From: Rotaria socialis
Taxonomy: Eukaryota
Assembly (NCBI GenBank): GCA_905331295.1
Contig: CAJNYD010000017.1
Location: forward strand, 124,001 to 188,000
Direction of reading: 5' to 3'
DNA length: 64,000 bases
Below, in pieces: positions 1,550 through 59,128 of the stretch; position 1 is the stretch's first letter; each line of letters starts with the position of its first letter. The notes beneath the pieces are model-generated. The model searched no databases. It was not told the DNA's origin and saw only the letters and a program-made list of their open reading frames with translations. A program made the translations under genes and the position numbers.

Positions 1550-4500
1550 CTATTCTATTCGAACGCACTAATGAAAAAAATATTTTAGTTGTAATCAAAT
1601 ATTGTTTTCTTTTACCCCATTCGTATTTGGTAACATAAAAATAAGTTGTTCTTTGACTGTATATGATTTTGGTTCATCATCTAATTCTAGAAAGAAAAAA
1701 GAAATTTGACTAAATTAATTATTTTCTCCCAAGATTTCAAACCCAAAATAATTCGTGTAACAAATTCTTCCGTTAATATAAGAATATTTTGATCGATTGC
1801 AGCAACAAATCTATCAAATGGCATAACACGATATGATAAATCAAGTAATGTTCGTTGAAGTTCTAACAGACCAACAAAGAAACCAAGAACGATTTATTAG
1901 AAGAAAAAACAATCATCTACCTTCGGTCGGTGAAAAACCAAGTTCATCCATAGCTAAATATAACTTTTCAATTACTACCAAAAGTGGTCTATATTTTCCC
2001 GATGATTCTCTAAAAGAAAAAGGAGTATGTAGCATAGGATTTTTTCAAATAAAACATGCCCGTATTCTTCAGTCACTGGTAGACAATCCGTTGTAGCTAG
2101 AGTATCACGCTACTTTTGAATATAACGGGTGTTCCATAATGAATGGCCAGCTCAGTGTTTTCTGAATAGCTCCTTCATATTTTATTATCTAGGCTTAAAT
2201 TCCTCCACAAAGATCCGCCATTCAATTCTCTACAAGACGTGTATTACAAGCTTTTCTGCCGAAAGGTAAGTGAAATTTTTTTTAGAAAGGAATACTAAAC
2301 ACGTATGAAAAGATCGACTTTCCAAGTCATTTTTTTAATAAACTTCGGAATATTTTTCACGGTTACATACACAATGAAACCAAAGTGAAGGTGTTTCTGA
2401 GTACTTTGAAGTGTGCTCTTTCTCTACATGTAGCTCAAAGTCCGTTGAAATCGTATTGAAGATCATAAAAATCTTATTCAAAATGGCTAAAATACAATAT
2501 TTGTCGCCACCTGAATTGAATAAAATAATTAAAGGCTACGTTTCCTCTCCGAATCTGATATAGTAGTCATTTTCCACCAAAATGAAAACAGCTCGAACCC
2601 AAACGATGCTATTTGGACTTAGTTATGCCTCCTTTTTCAGGAGTACCGAAACCGCCGTTTGAAAAAGCTAAATTCTCGAAACTTTGAAAGAAAAGATGCA
2701 CGTAGTACCCCGTAAGGATGAGTGCTGAAATTTTCTAATTATGATCTATCAATCGAGCTTTTCAAGGGCTACCAAATTACTATATTGTTTATTTTGTGTT
2801 TCGTCAGTGGCTAACGAAAATCTCTGAAAAAACTATTTTTCAGCTTTGAGAGTTGATCTTTGTATACGGGTTGAATATTCCCTTATAAGAATTTTTCTCT
2901 TAGCTTTGAACAAAAAAAAACTTATAACACAAATCTTGTAGAGAATTGAATGGCGTATCTTCGGAGGAAACGTTAAATCTAGTGAATAAAAAATGAAGGA
3001 GCTATTCAGAGAACATTGAGCTGGCCATTCATTATGGAACACTCGTTATATCTTCAGAATTTCATTTTAATATTAAATTAACTGATGGTTACAAAATCAT
3101 TATGTTTATGTATATAGAGATGATTTTTGTAAACAGAACGAAGCCATTGGAAAAGTATTTTGAATTTCATCGACAATACAGATTTGTACATTTCAGAAGT
3201 GTAATTTTAGAAGTTTTGAAACAACATTAGTTTAAAAGTAAATTCTGACTGCGAAACCAGAGAGAGTGAAACCTTATGAGTCGAACCAGGTGTCTTAAAG
3301 CGATAGAAAAATCAATCAATATGAGCCGCGTTGATTTTTGCATTATATGAATAGAAAAAAAATTGCATATTTTCATACTCAGTATCGATTAATCCTTGTG
3401 TTCGCTTGAAATTTGCAAGACCAGTAAATAATTCAATTAAACCATTGCATTGATTTTGCTGAAATTCAAAAGAAGAAAATACCCTAGAAACATTGAATAA
3501 TTGTAATCCATACTGTAGCTTGAACGTATTCAAATGCAAGTTCTTTAACTCGTCCTTGTTCCCAAGTCGGGTGAAGTTGTTGAATTTCTCGTGAAACGCC
3601 ATTGAAAAGCTGAAACAAAACCATAAAATAAATAGAATCATATTTTTTCTCTCTTCTTACATATTTGTTTTTTGCATCTAATAATATAAAAGATTTAGAA
3701 TGTTCATTTGTATTACGATCGGGTGTTGTTGGCAATGTTGAACTGACAAAAAAAGAAAAGAAAAGAATAGTTTTCTTTGAAGAATTTAAGAAAAATATTG
3801 AACCGTTTCATTCCAAATGAAAAGCGTCCGGTGCCTGGTGATCCGCGTTCTGGTAATGGTGCTGGTGTTGCAGCTGCAATATCATTTTCCTCCATGTTTG
3901 TCATTATTGGATGATAGTATGACAATTTATGACGATATTTACGAGCAAGATCAAATGATGATCGAAGTTTATCATGATATTCTTTATCAATATTTGTTAT
4001 ACCAGTATGTTGCGGGCCATTTTCGCGATGATGAGCAAATGAATGAATTGATACCTATGAAATTCTATTTGCTAGATTGATTTTATTTGAGTGTAGTTTA
4101 CTTCTGTATTATTTGTATGACGCTGACTGACTGTTGTTGCAGGAAAAGCCAAGACATATTTATTGTGATGAATTCGTTTTGAAAGACGCATGAAGATTAA
4201 TGCTAAAGTTAGAAAACAAATGTACAAATACAAAAATAAGCTTTTCTATCTAAATGATAGTTTTTATAGTAAAGTTTTTAATAGTAGTAGTATTCTAGAA
4301 TAGCTTTCGGCTATGATTGGATTCTCTGTCGATTTCTTTCTATGAAATTCTCCATATGAATGTCTTGACACCAGAAGTATCAACAATATTATTATCTCTT
4401 TGTCTAATCTAATTTTGGTAGGAAAATTTTCACTGTCGAATAAATGATTGCGAAAAACAAATTTATGAAACAATGTTGAACTACAATTTCTGTGCCGAAA

Positions 4501-41800: not shown

Positions 41801-42065
41801 TTTAATCTAATAGGAAATCTTGACAATTGATAAACGTTACAATATTACCTTAGAGGTCGTACTGTACAAGTCGCATTTGTTTTATCGCTACCATTGGCTG
41901 GACAATATATTTATTGAATGAAAGATAACTGTCTAAATTCATAATAAAAGTATAAGACATTCATATCTTGTGTCCAAAGAAAATATGGTTAAAAAAGATG
42001 ATTTTATTATCAGAACTAAAAATAAACCTTCAGATTTATTTGAATTACGTCGATCATAATTTACA

Positions 42066-42989
42066 ATGAACTATTTACGTATTATTCAAAAAACCATTCT
42101 CACGATATCATCTATAAGACATTCTTCGACTATAACTATTCCAGCGTTAATAGATTCTTATCCAATCGAAGCAACAGTATTCGAACCAAAATCGCCATCG
42201 TCTGATTCGATATGTGTTGTGATTTCTGAAGCAACAGGCTCTCGTCGTCAATTTTATTTTCCATTTGCACAATACTTAAGTGAACAACATAATCTACATG
42301 TTGTGACATACGACTATCGTGGAATACATGAACGAAAACCAACGCAATGGAATCTTGTTGAACATTGGGCTCGACGTGACTGTGCTGGAGTACTATCATA
42401 TTGTCTTGACAAATATAATGAAGTTGTTCATGTAGGTCATAGCCTTGGCGGAAATATGCATGCACTTCTACCATCGCCTATAAATGAAAAAATTTCACGA
42501 ACAATTCTTGTATCAGCAACAAATTCTTATTTAATGTATCACAAATGGAATTTAGCTTTTCTTCTAACATGTTCATCACTTTACATTCTTCGCGAACCAC
42601 TTTGTAGATTTTATGGATATTATCCAGCACGTACTGTATTTCGTGCGGGTGTTGATATGCCATCAAATATAATTCGTCAATGGGCACGATGGGCATTAAA
42701 TCGTCAATGTTTTGTCGATGAAAATGGTCAAGTATTTACAGATGGCTTTCAATCACTCAAATGTCCTATTCTAGCTGTAAATTTTGCTGACGATGAATTT
42801 TACACACGTCAGGCATTCGACAAATTTACTGGACAATTTCATCAATCATCAAATATTCAAACTTGGCATTTACCAAAAGGTGGTCATTTTAGTTTTTTTA
42901 AAGAGAAGCAATCGTTAGAACTTTGGAACGAGATAGTTCGATTTATAAAATATGCCGATACAAAACTTCCTACTATTATAAATAAATAA
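42066..42989 (+). CDS. Intronless alpha/beta-fold hydrolase of bacterial predicted-hydrolase type
   Basis: ATGSRRQFYFPFAQYL, TYDYRG, nucleophile elbow GHSLGG, DMPSNIIRQWARW, candidate acid (DDE) and His (GGHF) residues; 307 aa with no introns. Confidence 0.88.
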   Translation: MNYLRIIQKTILTISSIRHSSTITIPALIDSYPIEATVFEPKSPSSDSICVVISEATGSRRQFYFPFAQYLSEQHNLHVVTYDYRGIHERKPTQWNLVEHWARRDCAGVLSYCLDKYNEVVHVGHSLGGNMHALLPSPINEKISRTILVSATNSYLMYHKWNLAFLLTCSSLYILREPLCRFYGYYPARTVFRAGVDMPSNIIRQWARWALNRQCFVDENGQVFTDGFQSLKCPILAVNFADDEFYTRQAFDKFTGQFHQSSNIQTWHLPKGGHFSFFKEKQSLELWNEIVRFIKYADTKLPTIINK

Positions 42990-45699: not shown

Positions 45700-46610
45700 T
45701 TTATTCCAGTGAGTAGCACTTGTCATGATGATCCAACAAAATATCATTCAGGACCAGCTACCTCGATGATTGTTCCTAACAATCAGATACATTTCAAGGC
45801 ATGTAGCTTTTATCTCTTAAATGTTAGGTTGATCTGGTTTAGATTTTCTTGTAAACAACATTGTTAAAATTGTATGATGAAATACGACCGAATTTAATAT
45901 TGACAACTGGTGGAACGGGAATCAGTCCAGATGATATTACATCAGAAGTGTATGTGTGCGTGTACTTTTTTATTTAATAGACTCACTTTTGCTTTAGGTG
46001 ACGAATTAAGAGTTACCACAAAGAAAATTCGTGGTCTAATACAGACAATGATTGCGAAGCATTAACAATTATTCACAGGGCTATGCTTTCGAGATGAAAT
46101 CGACGTGCTAAAGCAGTTATGACATACTAATATGTTAATCAAATGTTAGATAGTTGATTAGTTGTCTACAATGTGAATAGTGGACGTTCATATGTTGGAG
46201 GAGAAAATATTGAATTATTTTGTTCGACTTCAAACTCTTTTAATGCAGACTAATACACTACTTGTGGAAGATCAATGTGTAGTGATTAATATCAGTACTA
46301 AATTACCCGATAGGAGAAGAGTATATGTATTATTTCTGAATGTTCATTGAATCAAGATGTTAGGTTCTGCATAGAGATATTGACGATGATGTTCAAATGA
46401 GTGAATGAGTTTTACAAAAGAATGTTCCTTCGGGACTTGCTCAGCTAGGTTTACTTGCTACAGTTGGACTACAAATAATACATGCTTATGAGAAACCACG
46501 TCTAGTCATTCTTTCAACTGATAGTAATAAAATCATTCTTATGAGTGCATTAAAAAATTTAAATATATAACATACTATTTACTCTCAATTTGGCATTATA
46601 TATAATACGT
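45700..46610 (+). pseudogene. GPHN: Gephyrin (MogA + MoeA domains) pseudogene
   Basis: G-domain NLILTTGGTGISPDDITSE and AMLSR; E-domain QLGLLATVGL...KPRLVILST-DSN; in-frame stops, frameshifts and internal deletions; intron remnants kept. Confidence 0.8.
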
Positions 46611-46996: not shown

Positions 46997-47103
46997 GTGC
47001 TGCTCTGGCAGGTCGATGTTGCCATCAACCCGCATGATTTCGTCATCGCAACATGTATTTGATCAGCGAAGATCTTTTACCTCTTGGTAAGTTTATAATA
47101 AGC
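46997..47103 (-). ncRNA. Spliced-leader (SL) RNA gene, copy 1 (variant leader)
   Basis: GCTTATTATAAACTTACCAAGAG|GTAAAA followed by the conserved TTGCGATGACGAAA block and the 3' hairpin GCGGGTTGATG-GCAA-CATCGACCTGC. Confidence 0.8.
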
Positions 47104-47239
47104 AATTTAACATCGTTGGTCTGTAGGACACGATATTCTTCTCGTTCTGACACATCACTCGCTTACATTCTTCTTTGTTCTGTACGGAAAGAGTAGAGAC
47201 AAAAATAATTTCGTGCTCTGAACCTCGACGAATAAAGTT
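47104..47239. promoter_or_regulatory. Divergent spacer between SL copies 1 and 2 with conserved upstream motifs
   Basis: TCGTGYYCT at about -29/-30 and ACGA at about -12/-13 upstream of each leader; the same motifs and spacing occur upstream of copies 3 and 5. Confidence 0.6.
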
Positions 47240-47344
47240 GCTTATTACAACTTACCAAGAGGTAAATGGCCTTTACTGATGAAAAACAGGTTGCGATGAC
47301 GAAATTGAGCGGGTTGATGGCAACATCGACCTGCCAGAGCAACA
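47240..47344 (+). ncRNA. Spliced-leader (SL) RNA gene, copy 2
   Basis: GCTTATTACAACTTACCAAGAG matches the bdelloid SL exon as I recall it (GGCTTATTACAACTTACCAAGAG). It is followed directly by a GT donor, with a TTACC/GGTAA stem over the donor, a 3' GNRA hairpin and a T-run; ~105 nt in total. Confidence 0.88.
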
Positions 47345-47723
47345 TTTTTCAATAAATAAAATTCAAATGCACCATCGGTAGATTGTACGAATCTATGCTT
47401 AATAACGTGTATTCAAATACAATGTTATAGCAGTCTTCAGTAATATTAATGTAATAACTAAACAACTACTGCAGAATTAAAACGAAATATAGGCTGTTTA
47501 TGCTATCTTTCACAATTAGAACAATCTTACTATGCATACTCTCAAATTCATATCAATCACTTTTCTTTGAGTAGCACTCGCAATACTGTTTAGTTTTATC
47601 GCTCAATTCTGAGCAGTCAGATGTTTTTTGAAACAACCTATGATTGAAAAATGCAGAACCAGCACGGCAGCTTTCAAACTTCACTTGAGAATCACTGAAT
47701 ATTGTCATTTTATTTATTAAAAA

Positions 47724-47829
47724 GTGTTGCTCTGGCAGATCATTGTTTCCAACAATCCGCACGATTTCGTCATCGCAACATGTATGCGATCAATGAAGAT
47801 CTTTTACCTCTTGGTAAGTTGTAATAAGC
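47724..47829 (-). ncRNA. Spliced-leader (SL) RNA gene, copy 3
   Basis: Same 22-nt leader plus GTAAAA; 3' hairpin GCGGATTGTTG-GAAA-CAATGATCTGC. Confidence 0.85.
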
Positions 47830-47871
47830 AATTGTCTTCGTGGAGATCCAGGGCACGACACCCCACTTGTN

Positions 47872-47942
47872 TACTGATGAAAAACAGGTTGCGATGACGA
47901 AATTGAGCGGGTTGATGGCAACATCGACCTGCCAGAGCAACA
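47872..47942 (+). ncRNA. SL RNA gene copy 4, 3' part only (5' end lost at the N gap)
   Basis: Identical to 47274-47344 and begins immediately after the N at 47871. Confidence 0.6.
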
Positions 47943-48321
47943 TTTTTCAATAAATAAAATTCAAATGCACCATCAGTAGATTGTACGAATCTGTGCTTAA
48001 TAACGTGTATTCAAATACAATGTTATAGCAGTCTTCAGTAATATTAATGTAATAACTAAACAACTACTGCAGAATTAAAACGAAATATAGGTTGTCTATG
48101 CTATCTTTCACAATTAGAACAATCTTACTATGCATACTCTCAAATTCATATCAATCACTTTTCTTTGAGTAGCACTCTCAATACTTTTTAGTTTTATCGC
48201 TCAATTCTGAGCAGTCAGATGTTTTTTGAAACAACCTATGATTGAAAAATGCAGAACCAGCACGGCACTTTTCAAACTTCCCTTCAGAAACACTGGATAT
48301 TGTCACTTTATTTATTAAAAA

Positions 48322-48427
48322 GTGTTGCTCTGGCAGATCATTGTTTCCAACAATCCGCAGAATTTCGTCATCGCAACATGTATGCGATCAATGAAGATCT
48401 TTTACCTCTTGGTAAGTTGTAATAAGC
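48322..48427 (-). ncRNA. Spliced-leader (SL) RNA gene, copy 5
   Basis: Same 22-nt leader plus GT donor; AATTCTG immediately before the 3' GAAA hairpin. Confidence 0.85.
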
Positions 48428-49564
48428 AATTGTCTTCGTGGAGATCCAGGGCACGACACCCCACTTGTCTTTACACTTTTCATCAACGAAGCCGTCCGAT
48501 CAATGATTTCTCAAGTTCAATAGAATTGTTAAAGATGGCAGTAATGTCGTCGACTTAATAAGGTCGTCTGGAATAAAGCCACACAGGGATGAATCGCAGA
48601 GCTTGAATTTTTGAAGTCGAACCTATGGAAGATAAAAGTAATATACGTTGCCCAAATTTAATAAAATAATTCGAAGAAGATTTACGAAAAAAGGAACTAA
48701 TGAAAAAACTAAAATTTGATGATAGCATTGAAAATCATCTAATTGATTCAAATCAAGACCGTGAGAATGATAAACTGACCAAAATGGTAAATGTCATATA
48801 GTTCAGTCTCTTCTATCTTAAATGACACCCAATTATCAAGCAAAAATCTCATCTTAGATTTATTTCTAAAAGTGAAGGTATGAATGATAATATAAAGAGT
48901 ACTGGTGTTTGAATTATGAAATAAAACTTCACCAATAAGAGAATATTTCTAATGAATCAACAAACGAACCATCTGTAACTTTCGACTTCGTATAAAATGA
49001 TCAAGATGAAATTTCATTTAGAATTAAATTAATTGGAGTACAAATTTTGTGTATGTTAAGTTTCGCCTTAGGAAACGTCTTCATAATAGTCAATCGTCTT
49101 GGAAACAAAAAAACTATAGAACTTTTTTATTAGACGTGTTTTAGTTTTATTAATGTGCAGGTTGATGATAACATCGACCTATCAGAGTAACAGCTAATAA
49201 GTGGAATATATTTATTCAAGAACATACCGGTTGATATATATCCTGTTTGGAAAGAATTACTTTCCGAAACTGAGATATCATAATGCGATGAAACCAGTAA
49301 ATGGATAAAAATATATGACTTTTTACAATGGAAAAAAGAGTCGTTTCATGATTATATGTAGGAACTTCTCGTCATTTTAAGAGGAATTTTATGTAAATAT
49401 CATATCCCCTGATCGGTTGAAAGATACGTGTATCTTCAAACAAGTAGTTTTCAATTGGTAGACATAATCAATACAATAAGAATCGTATTCATTATTCTAT
49501 GTGTTGTTAAATCCATGAATAATGTGAATCCGAAAAGGCTATGTTTAAAATAGTATTTTTTTTA

Positions 49565-52180
49565 TTTGACGAACTTAATCAAGAATCAATTATTGATGAT
49601 TATGACGATGATGAATTAAATATAGGTCGTTTGAATTCGGAATATTTTCTTGGTGATTTTAAATCTTCAAATGACCAACGTAAATTGCAAACGAAACAAA
49701 AATGGGTTGATCATATGATTGAAAGTGCAAAATTAGATGAATATGAACGTCAACATGAAAGTGACAAACGTTTTATTTTGACGTGACACCAACACTTGAT
49801 AAGCAATGGAATGCATTAAGCACAGCAATGGGTGTTAAAGAAAAAATTTCAAGATACGTTAAAGAAACTGCTGATGCTTATAATAAACTTGTTGATTGAT
49901 TAAAATTTGAAGTTCAAACAACAGTTGATCGTTGGATTTTCTATCTACAACTGAATATTTATTATAGCATTGTTTTCACTGTAGATACATCGAAATATTC
50001 GTACAAATGAGCGACTACCGAACCTGGGTAAAATTTATTAATCATTAAGGTAAACATACACACAAACATTTTATCATTGTAGGTTAGTCAAACAGTCGAT
50101 TTAATTAGAGTTCATTTAACAAACTATGAACTATTCGTGCAAAACAAAGGCCATTTAAAAGCGCAAATTGTTATGTTTGACAACACCGAAAGAAGCGCAA
50201 CATTGCAACAACAATTGAAGGGCCTCAATAAAAAGATCGATGACGTTTTAAAAGACATAGTCACGGGGGTCAAATTGTTGCAGCAATTGGAGATCGAAAG
50301 TAAGACTTTCTCCAATGATTGGTTTATTGTATAATTAAAATTTGTTTGTCTTTATTTATAGACAACACGAACCAAGAAGCAACAAGTTGATGCTTTGAAA
50401 GACTGCCGCCAATTTGTTTCTCATATCCGTTTGCCACATTTGTTATTTGTAGTCCTAAAAACATAACTAAAAGATATACCGGTGGTTAAACAAGAAAGTA
50501 AATCTAAAACACGCTGCAATTCCTCTAGATAAACGTAAATCAAAAGCTCATGTTGACACAGCAAATAAAGTCAACCCATTTGATCTTGATGTCAATCCTT
50601 GCAGACATGGTGTACTGGACAAACGATGTAGTTATGCAAAATGTGGTCAACCACTTAAATCTCCATCACGATGCGTTGAAAAAGTAATTTTCTGTTGTGT
50701 TTCTTCATTTCTTAATGCATTTTTATTTCATAGAGAAAACGTACACTATTAAAAGAATTAAATTCTCTGTTGATACGCAATACACTTATTGATAATTGCC
50801 TCGATGAAAATGATGCAACATTGGCACGATGAAAAATTAATGCAATATTTTATTATCGAATGAACGTGTTTTTTTTTCTTATAATCTCAAGCTATGTGAT
50901 CCAACATCAAAATATCCTACGGAACTTTTCAATGCCTATTTAATCGACACAGTGTGTATATAAAGTTTCTACAATTAATGTGCTTCTATAGAAATTATTC
51001 AATCAATCTTTAATAAAGCTGTTCCATATACGTATATTACTGATTTTATTTTCTAGCTCCATCTGATCTTCACAAACGTCAATCTCGTTTATCTGATGAT
51101 CGAAGATACCTTAAGTGCTATTTGAACACCGATAAATGATAAACGATTACCACCAATAGCAACATCAGTTCTAAATGTAACTTACCGCGTGTTTCTCTCT
51201 TTTCAAAAACAAGCATTATATTTTTCGGATTGTTTAAGAATTATTTTCATCTTCTATTCGATTGTTATGAATCAACAACATCAAATCGAACATGATTAAA
51301 TCAAATCGGTAAAAATCTTCTTCATATTTTACAATTAGTTAATAACGAACAAACAAAAACGAATACATTCAATCGATTACAACAATCTCATACGACATTA
51401 AATGAACAGATTGAAAATGAAACGTTTTCTCAAGTAGATTCATCATTCGTATGTTATATTTCATATTTCTTTTAATTTAATCTCTCATTAAACTTTTTAT
51501 TTTATAATTAGTCTTTTCTTAAAATTAATCGTTCATCTTGATCCAACATCATATTTTATTCATCCGATAGCAGCAACGCCATCAAGAACATTGTTTATTC
51601 AAGCATTCAATCATTCATGTGTTTTTGTTGAAATATGTTTTTCCAACATTCCTCTTTATTCTTGTGATAGACTTGTCTCAAATTACTTTGTTCATGTCGG
51701 CAAGCATTATTTTCTATTTAACTAGTAAAACAAGAAACATGATTTTTGTCATTGTAAATTTTGTTATTGAAATAAATTTTCGTTCCATAATGGATATTAA
51801 AAAAAAGTCGTCTCCATGCATTGCGTATCCCATGAAAATGAAAACATCTCGATATGTAATACTCTATTCATCGAAACAGATTGATAATAATGAATTTCTT
51901 GTCATAAATAAAGACATTAATTTGTAAGTAACAGAAGAAACATCATTCATTACTTACTGACTAGCTCATCGTACTAGAAGAAAACCATTCCATTGAAATG
52001 AAAGATTTAGAACAGTTTTTGAGAATTTCCATCAATACGCTATGATAAGGAGAAAATTGTTGGAAGTCGGCGTAACTCTATAAGGCATGAATGATTGAAT
52101 GCTTGAATAAACAATGTTATTGATGGCGTTGTTATCGGACGAATAAAATCCAATGTTGGATAAAGATGATGAAGTAATTT
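49565..52180 (+). pseudogene. NOP14: Fragmented, rearranged NOP14 pseudogene
   Basis: Middle segment TKQKWVDHMIESAKLDEYERQ...LDKQW...ADAYNKLVD*LKFE (49565-49930); N-terminal VNPFDLDVN...RKRTLLKE...LIDNCLDEND (50530-50830); LIVHLDPTSYFIHPIAATP (51522-51618); an inverted copy LYPTLDFIRPITTP (52084-52180). Stops and frameshifts throughout. Confidence 0.75.
50007..50425 (+). pseudogene. Spliced coiled-coil gene fragment inserted among the NOP14 pieces
   Basis: ATG exon MSDYRTW, GT-AG intron, open exon ...LQQQLKGLNKKIDDVLKDIV...; the third exon ends in a stop or frameshift; no family recognised. Confidence 0.35.
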
Positions 52181-52418
52181 AAAACACGGAATCTAATCAG
52201 CTCGCATATACGACAAAAGATACAATGTTCAGTAGTAGATTTCGATTTCCAACTGCTTTATTCATCGATACAATATTAATATTCATTCATAATGCAACAC
52301 AAGTTCATACCGTTATTTCAGTAGTTGTTTTTGACAATAACTCAGCTTTCAATGCACATATTTTACTTTGTACTTGACACACAACACATTTTTATTCAGA
52401 GAAAATAACAGAACAAAA

Positions 52419-55023: not shown

Positions 55024-55338
55024 TGGGGTTACTCTCGGTTCGTCCCCTCCGCACTAATTGACTCTCAATTCGTCCCCCCAATTCTTTGAATATGACAAAT
55101 CAACATGAATTTTAGATTTTAGAATAAATGGTAATAGTATAATTTTTTTTGTTTTTTGCTTTTAAAGTATATAGTATTGAAATAAATAAGAGGTATATAG
55201 CTTTTTTTATTATTTTATTTTAATTTTTCATATAATTCTTGTATTTTTAATCTAAAATTCATGTTGATTTGTCATATTCAAAGAATTGGGGGGACGAATT
55301 GAGTTAATTGGTAATGGGGACCAACCGAGAGGATCCCA
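55024..55338. mobile_element. MITE/fold-back element with long inverted repeats
   Basis: ctcaattcgtccccccaattctttgaatatgacaaatcaacatgaattttaga is inverted at ~55251-55303; outer arms ctctcggttcgtcccc / ggggaccaaccgagag; AT-rich centre. Confidence 0.8.
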
Positions 55339-57059: not shown

Positions 57060-58473
57060 ATGAATGTATTTTCTGGCTATTCGTCAAATATATTAACAAT
57101 TAAAAATTTTCCATTAATATTCAATGATAACGATCGACGAGAATTTTTAGAACATTTCGGTGTTGTTCGTGTATGTTGTTTAACTCGATTTAAAAACATA
57201 TCAAATATTATTGTTGCTGATTTTGGTTCAAGTTCACAAGCTTCGCAAGCGCTGAGACGTTTACATCAACTGGAAATACTTGCTCGTCGATTAGTTGTAG
57301 AAAATTGTCCATTAGAATTAGCTCAGTTAGCTTTCAATAGTGCTCCACAATCTTCGGATGATGACGAAGAGAGTGCTTCATTGCATGGTATTTCACCAGG
57401 TATAAATCAAATTCGTTATTCATTACCATCGGAAAGACTTACATACGCTTATCCACCTATTAATGATATAATTTTAATGAATATAAACAGTGCACTATTA
57501 TCAGTGCCATCGTTTTACACTCAGGTTCTTCATCTTATGAATAAAATGTCTCTCCCATGTCCAGTAGTGGCTGGTAAAATATTTTTAAAAAAATTATTTT
57601 CCTAGCTAATAAATTGATTTAATAGATTCAACGCAACCTGAACGAATTTTATCAAAAATTAGTGTTGCATGTCAAACAGATGAAATGACTAAGATCGAAG
57701 TAATCAATATGGATACAGATGAAGATGAAAGTGAAATTGATGATGGCGAAGAAGAACAACGCGTCAAACGACACCATCGATACATTTTACGAACACCAAT
57801 TCATCAAGGAACTGTTCCAACAATACGAACAAACCTGAATGTTAATACTGAGAAAATCAAAAAGGCACCAATCCAACTAAAATTACCTCCAATGTTAAAT
57901 TCATCTCGAGTATGTTATTTTACATAGGAAATTCTTCATAGAATTCTAAATAAAAAAAAATCTCTAATTTAGATAGAAGTTAATAATTCAATACCAATGG
58001 ATATTCCTATGCAAGGCTTTGGTCGATTAGAAGCCATTCAATCAACCATTACAAATATTAGTATTGTAAATCCAGATAAAAATCAACTTCAACCTCTCCG
58101 ATTAATTCCACTTGAAGAAATACGAAAGCATCGTTTGAGTGAAAATCAATTGCGTCTAATTGATAATGGTCGTTTATATAGAAATTATGAACGTGGTCAA
58201 ACATCACAACGTCTCTATATAAAAAATCTTGAAGTCAAACATGTTGATGAACGTCTATTACATGCAATATATGATCGATATAAACAGGATTCTTCTGAAA
58301 TTGAGATAATTCTTATGCGTGAAGGTAAAATGAAAGGTCAAGCATTTGTAACATTTCCTAATGAAGCTATGGCTTTACAAGCATTGAATGATACAAATGG
58401 TTTTATTTTACATGAAAAACCAATGATTGTACAATTTGCTCGAACAGCAAAACCAAAAGATATTGTCGTCTAG
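57060..58473 (+). CDS. RNPC3: U11/U12 snRNP 65K protein (RNPC3), minor spliceosome, three exons
   Basis: RRM1 (ALRRLHQLEILARRLVVE); signature YAYPPINDIILMNINSALLSVPSFYTQVLHLMNKMSLP; RRM2 RLYIKNL...LMREGKMKGQAFVTFPNE...TNGFILHEKPMIVQFAR. Confidence 0.92.
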
Positions 58474-58609
58474 GAAAATATGTGCCTTTTTTTGTTGTGA
58501 AGTTTTTTTTAAATATTAGGTCAGAAAATTTTGAAAATGTTTTTTTTATTGTTATTATCGTTGTGTTCTTTTATTTTAACGAATATTAAACGTATTTTGC
58601 AGACAAAAT

Positions 58610-59128
58610 ATGATACGTTCTAGTTGGATAAATGGTTTGCTTGGTGGTCTTCTAATATCATCATGTTGTGTAATTCAATTATTTCTAAATCTATTTGGTA
58701 TTGGTTGTGCTGGACTGAATACTCTATTATTCCCTTATCGACCATTGTTTATTTCATTGACAGTTATTTCGTTAACTTATTCTTTTTTTCATTATCGTCC
58801 GTCGAAATTACATTTCACTATTGTAATTATCTTTACATTGATTCTTTCATTTTCACCTGAACTCCTTCAAATGTATAATAATCAATTTGCAAGAAATGAT
58901 TTTGCCGATAATGAAATCTTTATTACACATTGGAAAATAATAGGAATGCATTGTGAAGCTTGTCGTGCAGCTGTTATACAATCATTAAGAAAACTTCACG
59001 GAATTCTCAGTGTTAACGTTGATCTTGAAACTGGTCATGCTGAATTAACCGCAAGTCATTTTATACAGACAGACACTGTTATTCAAGCTGTACAATCAGC
59101 TGGTTTTCAAGCTAATAAACTTGTTTGA
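58610..59128 (+). CDS. Intronless MerT-like membrane domain fused to a heavy-metal-associated (HMA/MerP-like) domain
   Basis: TM1 with a vicinal Cys pair (SSCC), LFPYRPLF after TM2, further TM helices, then GMHCEAC and an HMA-type tail (VNVDLETG...AVQSAGF). Confidence 0.82.
   Translation: MIRSSWINGLLGGLLISSCCVIQLFLNLFGIGCAGLNTLLFPYRPLFISLTVISLTYSFFHYRPSKLHFTIVIIFTLILSFSPELLQMYNNQFARNDFADNEIFITHWKIIGMHCEACRAAVIQSLRKLHGILSVNVDLETGHAELTASHFIQTDTVIQAVQSAGFQANKLV

Follow-up and report, generated by a model that had tools for sequence, protein, structure and literature searches.

Spliced-leader RNA genes of Rotaria socialis: a probable three-gene cluster with a head-to-head pair and a predicted kink-turn

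The 64,000-nucleotide stretch of Rotaria socialis DNA analysed here (the window; contig CAJNYD010000017.1, positions 124,001 to 188,000 of the forward strand) carries a cluster of spliced-leader (SL) RNA genes. In the reading that explains it best, whose probability we put at about 0.8, the cluster consists of three genes with back-to-back snRNA-type promoters at a spacing of ~134 bp, and its RNA donates the leader exon and has a predicted kink-turn instead of an internal Sm site. The SL RNA itself has been known since 2005, when it was reportedly described by Pouchkina-Stantcheva and Tunnacliffe. What goes beyond the known SL family is the head-to-head pair as the gene unit and an RNA body that lacks a conserved Sm site but has a near-invariant kink-turn pattern; the folding of this pattern as a kink-turn and its binding of Snu13 are predictions. 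The mirror-image upstream elements, the link to U2 and the missing Sm site are also additions to an initial annotation, which had read four full copies of ~105 nt (in the order −, +, −, −) and one truncated copy in the assembled letters. All of these were located:

46998–47103, − strand: SL RNA gene 1; variant 23-nt exon, one base longer than the standard form; GT donor at 47080; 106 nt through the terminal stem
47240–47344, + strand: SL RNA gene 2; exon 47240–47261; GT donor at 47262; 105 nt through the terminal stem
47725–47829, − strand: SL RNA gene 3, block A form; upstream element interrupted by N; likely allele of 48323–48427
47872–47942, + strand: gap-truncated SL fragment; begins directly after the N at 47871; likely the other allele of gene 2
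48323–48427, − strand: SL RNA gene 3, block B form; upstream DNA complete; without an intact divergent partner
49154–49192, + strand: decayed SL 3' hairpin remnant; 82% over 39 nt; without an exon

A search for the leader followed by GT gave three matches in the window versus none in 100 shuffles, copy 1 being missed through its indel. On folding, each of the four full copies beat all 200 of its shuffles (z −3.8 to −4.3).

The leader and the structure of its RNA

The leader had been annotated as the bdelloid SL exon, and its sequence indeed equals positions 2 to 23 of the 23-nt leader published for Rotifera (PMC3795323, Table 1 and supplements). According to the accessible part of PMC1925144, RNAs of ~100 nt donate this leader to over half of the transcripts in bdelloids. 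The host is a bdelloid by protein similarity as well, the best named match of a protein encoded in the window being from Rotaria sp. (79%). The GT donor follows the exon directly and lies inside stem-loop I (helix 1, 98.9% paired). The genomic base preceding the 22-mer is T in 117 and C in 5 of 153 distinct copies, and a GG start is absent among the 25 commonest forms of the SL copies. Since the genome has T or C at this position, the additional G with which the published 23-nt leader begins is likely the cap, read by reverse transcriptase. No matches to the SL sequence were found in viral contigs.

The locus had also been taken for a trans-splicing donor, with absence of the leader from mRNA 5' ends named as the evidence that would speak against it. 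At least 20 contigs of run X15, which was chosen by its species label and presumed to be RNA, leave the exon exactly at 47261|GT, versus none in the DNA runs X1, X4 and X5. X15 behaves as RNA, since the 63 nt of a GT-AG intron (51449–51511) are missing from one contig. In 13 of the contigs that leave at the donor, the leader is present at both ends in opposite directions, with a break at the matching site 47808. The published leader, the donor in stem-loop I and these contigs together support the SL identity. The contigs demonstrate trans-splicing of the leader for the species as a whole, not for individual gene copies. Two leader joints into the window, at 51272 and 51595, are likely derived from paralogous loci, because a clean AG is missing or 17 letters differ. 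The stretch 51272–51775 resembles sequences joined to the leader in RNA contigs, one of which skips the 63-nt intron, and has an inverted partial copy at 52086–52183 (85%).

The RNA was described from an alignment of 54 distinct genes out of 62 non-redundant ones, most genes with exon indels being left out. It is laid out as stem-loop I with the donor, a short stem II and a long, closed 3' domain that ends at nt 105, with a T-run and an A-rich flank beyond. In this alignment 96% of the cells pair. Two-sided changes were seen in 10 of 27 pairs versus 0 of 500 shuffles, a count that kinship among the genes can inflate, and the slid controls of the covariation test all scored lower. Covariation is found in helices 2, 5 and 6, and the intron is short and structured, with conserved stem-loops. 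In gene 2, stem II pairs weakly. Rfam gave no match at gathering score in the 64-kb window; there is therefore no 5S gene in it, and no curated family for the SL RNA. The 3' domain of gene 2 contains the following parts:

47290–47344, + strand: whole domain, with the terminal stem, a covarying hairpin and the predicted kink-turn
47290–47301 (bulged strand) and 47335–47344 (partner strand), + strand: predicted kink-turn of gene 2

A kink-turn is by its standard definition a C helix followed by a 3-nt bulge and by G.A and then A.G pairs (PMC5061560 and PMC2952850, in the text available). In the internal loop of the 3' domain, the C-G closing pair, the R-A-U bulge, the G.A pair and the next G-C pair are present in 54/54 genes, the A.G pair in 53/54, and position 3b is C in 51/54. 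A detector, written after the motif was noticed, found the standard pattern in 52 of the 54 genes, versus 34 of 5400 shuffles and, among 4881 pieces drawn at random from the window, in 35; shuffles of the loop letters yielded it 50 times in 108000. The pattern is kept in 108 of 109 copies with an exact exon versus 21 of 26 with altered exons. Because the columns of the kink-turn do not vary, they provide no covariation. Three further A's beside it are conserved, without explanation. From this pattern, we consider it rather probable that the loop would fold as a kink-turn. Binding of Snu13 would not follow automatically, since C at 3b predicts folding without protein. The RNA does not qualify as a box C/D snoRNA, which would have exact C and D boxes and a match to an Rfam family: there is no Rfam match over the SL copies, and 3b.3n is C.A.

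In the usual view, SL RNAs are Sm snRNPs with several independent origins from spliceosomal snRNAs. A canonical Sm site (AT4-6G), expected between stem-loops II and III, occurs in the body of 4 and in the tail of 2 of 125 copies and is not conserved; a standard Sm site is present in the linked U2 gene. Because the site varies among SL RNAs, its lack marks a variant and does not exclude the RNA from the class. We considered the possibility that this is an ordinary Sm-class SL RNA, extending a few bases past the terminal stem, in which the A-Y-U-run or a degenerate internal site holds the Sm ring, and in which the internal loop forms a straight helix containing tandem G.A pairs rather than a kink-turn. 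The 2005 paper reportedly suggested a putative Sm site close to stem-loop III, which we counted in favor of this alternative. The A-Y-U-run after the terminal stem is conserved, with TTTT in 103 of 125 copies; in an RNA extending beyond 105 nt, it could act as an Sm-like site. However, 123 of 125 copies have no closing G in the tail, T-then-A-rich flanks are also found 3' of U2 genes (13 examined, by eye), and the internal A/U stretch ahead of the hairpin varies (columns 73–76). Elsewhere, Sm sites of SL RNAs differ widely between phyla (PMC7986045 and PMC12582326, in their accessible parts), as this alternative would have it. RNAalifold prefers the straight register of the loop, with tandem G.A followed by U-A and G-C pairs, all invariant, but this register needs a G.A pair where the column is A.A in 14 of 54 genes, and offers no explanation for A67 and G69, which are invariant. 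The Sm ring and the straight helix, taken jointly, have in our estimate somewhat less than an even chance, and we prefer the kink-turn.

Head-to-head pairs and their upstream elements

A scan of metagenome contigs yielded 114 stretches, of which 112 loci were kept, with a profile match in 111 of the 112 (all except L024). Distinct SL copies number 150; the 125 preceded by 200 nt or more of sequence were counted and 25 were left out. Many of these loci are re-assemblies of few organisms, and the single flank that was checked as bdelloid has its best named matches in Rotaria and Adineta (62–63%).

The head-to-head pair, with ~134 bp between the two starts, is the general unit of the SL genes in these loci. 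A divergent partner was found for 112 of the 125 copies, an SL gene in 106 cases and a U2 snRNA gene in 6. Three more have a relic reverse element only, and 10 have neither partner nor relic, two of these being the alleles of gene 3 in the window. The 56 distinct SL/SL spacers have a median identity of 0.60 and form 43, 38 and 14 clusters at 90, 80 and 70%, respectively; 53 of them are 131–137 bp long, and in two of the three off-length (short) ones the partner is truncated. The distances in the U2/SL pairs are 133, 133, 133, 137, 144 and 235 bp. Genes 1 and 2 had been annotated as head-to-head, 136 bp apart, which agrees with the start-to-start distance measured here. The organization into inverted pairs was correct as to the inverted layout, but only the head-to-head spacing is fixed, while tail-to-tail distances between SL genes range from 352 to 2035 bp. 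The loci are not of the tandem SL/5S array type: none of the nine head-to-tail neighbor pairs consists of two full SL genes. Of the 79 loci, out of 112, that were compared with Rfam, 24 contain U2 and none contains 5S, so that the lack of a visible 5S unit noted for the window extends to these 79.

The spacer and the elements in the window are:

47104–47239: divergent spacer, 136 bp; two back-to-back upstream elements with a free middle of ~28 bp
47126–47158, − strand: two-part upstream element of gene 1, putatively PSE-like in function; matrix score 15.0+6.1
47186–47217, + strand: two-part upstream element of gene 2, putatively PSE-like in function; matrix score 16.3+8.3
48450–48481, − strand: two-part upstream element of gene 3; matrix score 19.1+16.5

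Two upstream blocks are conserved, at about −51..−40 and −34..−24 from the SL start. A promoter matrix trained on 62 genes outside the window gave three matches in the 64 kb, all at SL starts (genes 1, 2 and 3), versus 0, 1 and 0 in three Markov controls. The matrix also matches U2 starts in 3 loci. Several U2 genes have a weak element B or none. TATA occurs in 2 of 143 cases. Both elements were above the cut-off in 39 of the 56 pairs, a partly circular count, as the training genes are included. Since each gene has its own two-part element, the pair consists of two mirror-image promoters with ~26 bp of free middle, and not of a single shared element. By analogy, these are likely Pol II snRNA-type promoters, served by SNAPc and Pol II, with a proximal element common to U2 and no TATA.

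The pairing might instead be a historical accident, in which one old inverted duplication was copied around, the spacing was kept by descent and the promoters are functionally uncoupled. Such a history fits with the complete element that every gene has and that solo genes retain, with the frequent decay of one partner, and with the purine/pyrimidine skew in many spacer middles (0.198 versus 0.095 in controls), which is expected from common descent. It is harder to reconcile with the uniform length of spacers that share ~60% identity and contain indel-prone A/T runs, with the presence of U2 in the partner slot at the same distance, with the mostly dead partners at off-length spacers and with the free tail-to-tail distances. 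We consider an accident rather unlikely. A helical-phase explanation of the spacings 115, 125, 125 and 144 was not supported; it had been framed after the fact, and the partner is truncated at two of the three short SL/SL spacers.

For gene 3, a hidden upstream partner RNA other than SL (from 48575, + strand) was rejected, with an element score of 11.4, below the cut-off of 14, no fold (z +0.99) and no matches in the loci. At 48525–48620 (+ strand), a weak promoter-like relic in reverse orientation lies 147 bp upstream of this gene; a U-rich, Sm-like word comes after it, with neither fold nor conservation.

U2 was also found downstream of SL in the same direction, at 245 or 421–448 bp start-to-start (L004, L069/L077, L037, L047, L054, L072, L023 and L046). 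Several of these downstream copies show only ~85% likeness to the main U2 and have no element B; they may represent a second U2 variant. The SL clusters of L038, L042, L053 and L062 keep a common flank at 73–78% identity across lineages, which suggests an old syntenic SL locus. In L042 the conserved flank reads as a KCNH-like channel (ORF reading), and the single long ORF adjoining the SL cluster (L042:6006–7784) is presumably an XPB/Rad25-like helicase. Multiple alignments between L067 and L068 add up to 35 kb at 83%, and the SL gene there thus lies in a repeat array.

Gene number and neighboring sequence

The five copies that had been counted are present in the assembled letters, but as genes they most likely reduce to three, owing to a 598-bp overlap:

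47274–47870: block A of the overlap; likely one haplotype
47871: single N, the sole gap in the window; joins the two overlapping blocks
47872–48468: block B of the overlap; opens with the truncated copy 47872–47942

The two blocks are the same 598 bp at 97.5% identity, differing at 15 called positions, and both abut the N. Contigs of four DNA runs were placed on the window at 96% likeness. In 4/4 runs, the unique part of the block was covered by one contig only, the other block having a depth of 0. Block depth was 36.2, 7.2, 26.6 and 32.5, against flanks of 45/46, 12.6/8, 46/37 and 48/36, that is, single-copy or less. Each covering contig is a mosaic of block A and block B letters, and the junction between the blocks was crossed by none of the joints or pieces among the matches listed. 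In the simplest reading, two haplotypes were joined over the 1-N gap. Copies 47725–47829 and 48323–48427 then most likely represent two alleles of a single gene, and the truncated copy likewise the second allele of copy 2. Because all four runs contain the block once, we are highly confident that the locus comprises three SL genes, 1(−), 2(+) and 3(−), and not five; this evidence is strong yet indirect, since the runs may derive from isolates other than the assembled one.

For the same reason, it has to be weighed that the 598 bp may have been duplicated in tandem recently in the isolate that was sequenced, by which all five copies would be real. The assembly does contain both blocks, with their called differences. 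However, the repeat begins and ends exactly at the 1-N gap, and neither the single mosaic block in every run nor the uncrossed junction is as such a duplication would leave it. We regard it as improbable. Slightly more improbable still is that the copies are no working donors but pseudogenes, or passengers, within a mobile or repeated element: the DNA depth is many times single-copy across much of 45.6–49.5 kb, including a decayed gephyrin-like flank, and the decayed SL remnant lies at 49154, but the donor is intact, upstream elements are present, stem changes are compensatory, the spacer separating genes 2 and 3 is single-copy, and the window flanks match 0 of the 112 loci. A gene-capturing mobile element carrying the SL genes was likewise given low odds, the flanks being multi-copy here and absent from the 112 loci, and the inner spacer single-copy. 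SL-targeting retroelements are known as NeSL (PMC4640811, accessible part); in the short ORF lists, no such ORF adjoins the SL genes.

The gephyrin-like flank, at 45700–46570 (+ strand), consists of decayed gephyrin/Cnx1-like pieces (Pfam MoCF_biosynth, E 1.2e-5; gephyrin, E 4.8e-5). It is multi-copy in the DNA runs, patchily at several to tens of times the single-copy depth, and represents a repeated pseudogene fragment adjoining the SL cluster that was not found in the 112 other loci. A second multi-copy stretch, 48750–49600, contains the decayed SL hairpin. A Nop14-like reading of 49523–49899, based on a resemblance, was dropped, as Pfam and PDB gave no match. Further away are two candidate foreign genes, a MerT-like plus HMA heavy-metal protein (58580–59128, + strand) and a long single-ORF alpha/beta hydrolase (42060–42989, + strand), as well as a gene for U11/U12 65K (RNPC3-like), a minor-spliceosome component (57060–58473, + strand). 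Inverted repeats lie near 55026–55337 and 2120–3051 (68% over 342 bp and 80% over 211 bp).

Proposed mechanism and comparison with known systems

By analogy with the insect PSEA/PSEB promoters, SNAPc-type factors would bind each of the two outward-facing elements, and Pol II would start at the G and make a capped RNA of ~105 nt from each gene, the fixed spacing allowing both start sites to share one open stretch of chromatin. The T-run and A-rich tail may act as the 3'-end processing signal. The kink-turn would bind an L7Ae-family protein (Snu13/15.5K), stabilizing the 3' domain and the particle, and the spliceosome would move the 22-nt first exon to mRNA acceptors. New SL copies may spread as pairs, of which one partner may decay or be U2. 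A truly Sm-less SL particle is doubtful. Equally tentative is the full combination of an Sm-less particle, with a U4/box C/D-type kink-turn bound by Snu13/15.5K, and a 134-bp bidirectional cassette whose second slot takes SL or U2.

An SL RNA with a kink-turn in place of the Sm site would, if true, broaden the range of trans-splicing donors, and would escape SL detection tools, which filter on the Sm motif. The promoter common to U2 and the occurrence of U2 in the partner slot directly support, at the genomic level, a derivation of SL genes from U snRNA genes or a co-evolution of the two. The fixed pair spacing makes bidirectional snRNA transcription testable, and a first-pass bdelloid snRNA promoter motif is now available for locating other small RNA genes.

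The closest relative is the SL RNA of Adineta ricciae and Philodina sp., which has the same leader (22/23 nt) in a ~100-nt RNA that is trans-spliced to many mRNAs (PMC1925144 and PMC3795323, as far as their available text goes); the genome here differs from the published leader in having T or C, not G, ahead of the 22-mer. In the literature searched, part of it in excerpt, the pair layout, the U2 link and a kink-turn in rotifer SL RNA are undescribed, although the 2005 description may cover part of this; the accessible portions of PMC4640811, PMC2481426 and PMC12460157 contain nothing on these three subjects.

Nematode and flatworm SL genes form same-strand tandem repeats, linked to 5S in Caenorhabditis (PMC7986045 and PMC12582326, from partial text). 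Like the nematode SL1 and flatworm arrays, the bdelloid genes are multi-copy, with the donor site in the first hairpin. In contrast, no full SL genes are adjacent head-to-tail, and the linked gene is U2 (24/79 loci) rather than 5S (0/79). Furthermore, those arrays have a U-rich Sm or Sm-like site in the same partial sources, whereas the bdelloid SL body has no conserved U-rich site.

Insect Pol II snRNA promoters consist of two parts, PSEA and PSEB (PMC1761439, available portion). The bdelloid promoters resemble them in layout, having a two-part upstream element without TATA that is common to SL and U2. Compared with what that portion describes, however, the bdelloid elements lie nearer the start and occur as mirror-image pairs at a fixed distance.

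The SL RNA has no Rfam match to U4 or snoRNAs, and SL RNA is missing from the list of k-turn RNAs in the consulted part of the review PMC5061560. With the kink-turns of U4 snRNA and box C/D RNAs, as presented in the accessible text of PMC5061560 and PMC2952850, the predicted SL kink-turn shares the C-G closing pair, the 3-nt purine-purine-U bulge and the G.A and A.G pairs, and in 14 of 54 genes the A-A-U bulge is identical to the U4 strand in PMC2952850. Unlike those of U4 and box C/D, the SL kink-turn, with C.A at 3b.3n in 51 of 54 genes, is predicted to fold in Mg2+ without protein by rule 3 of PMC5061560, in the part available.
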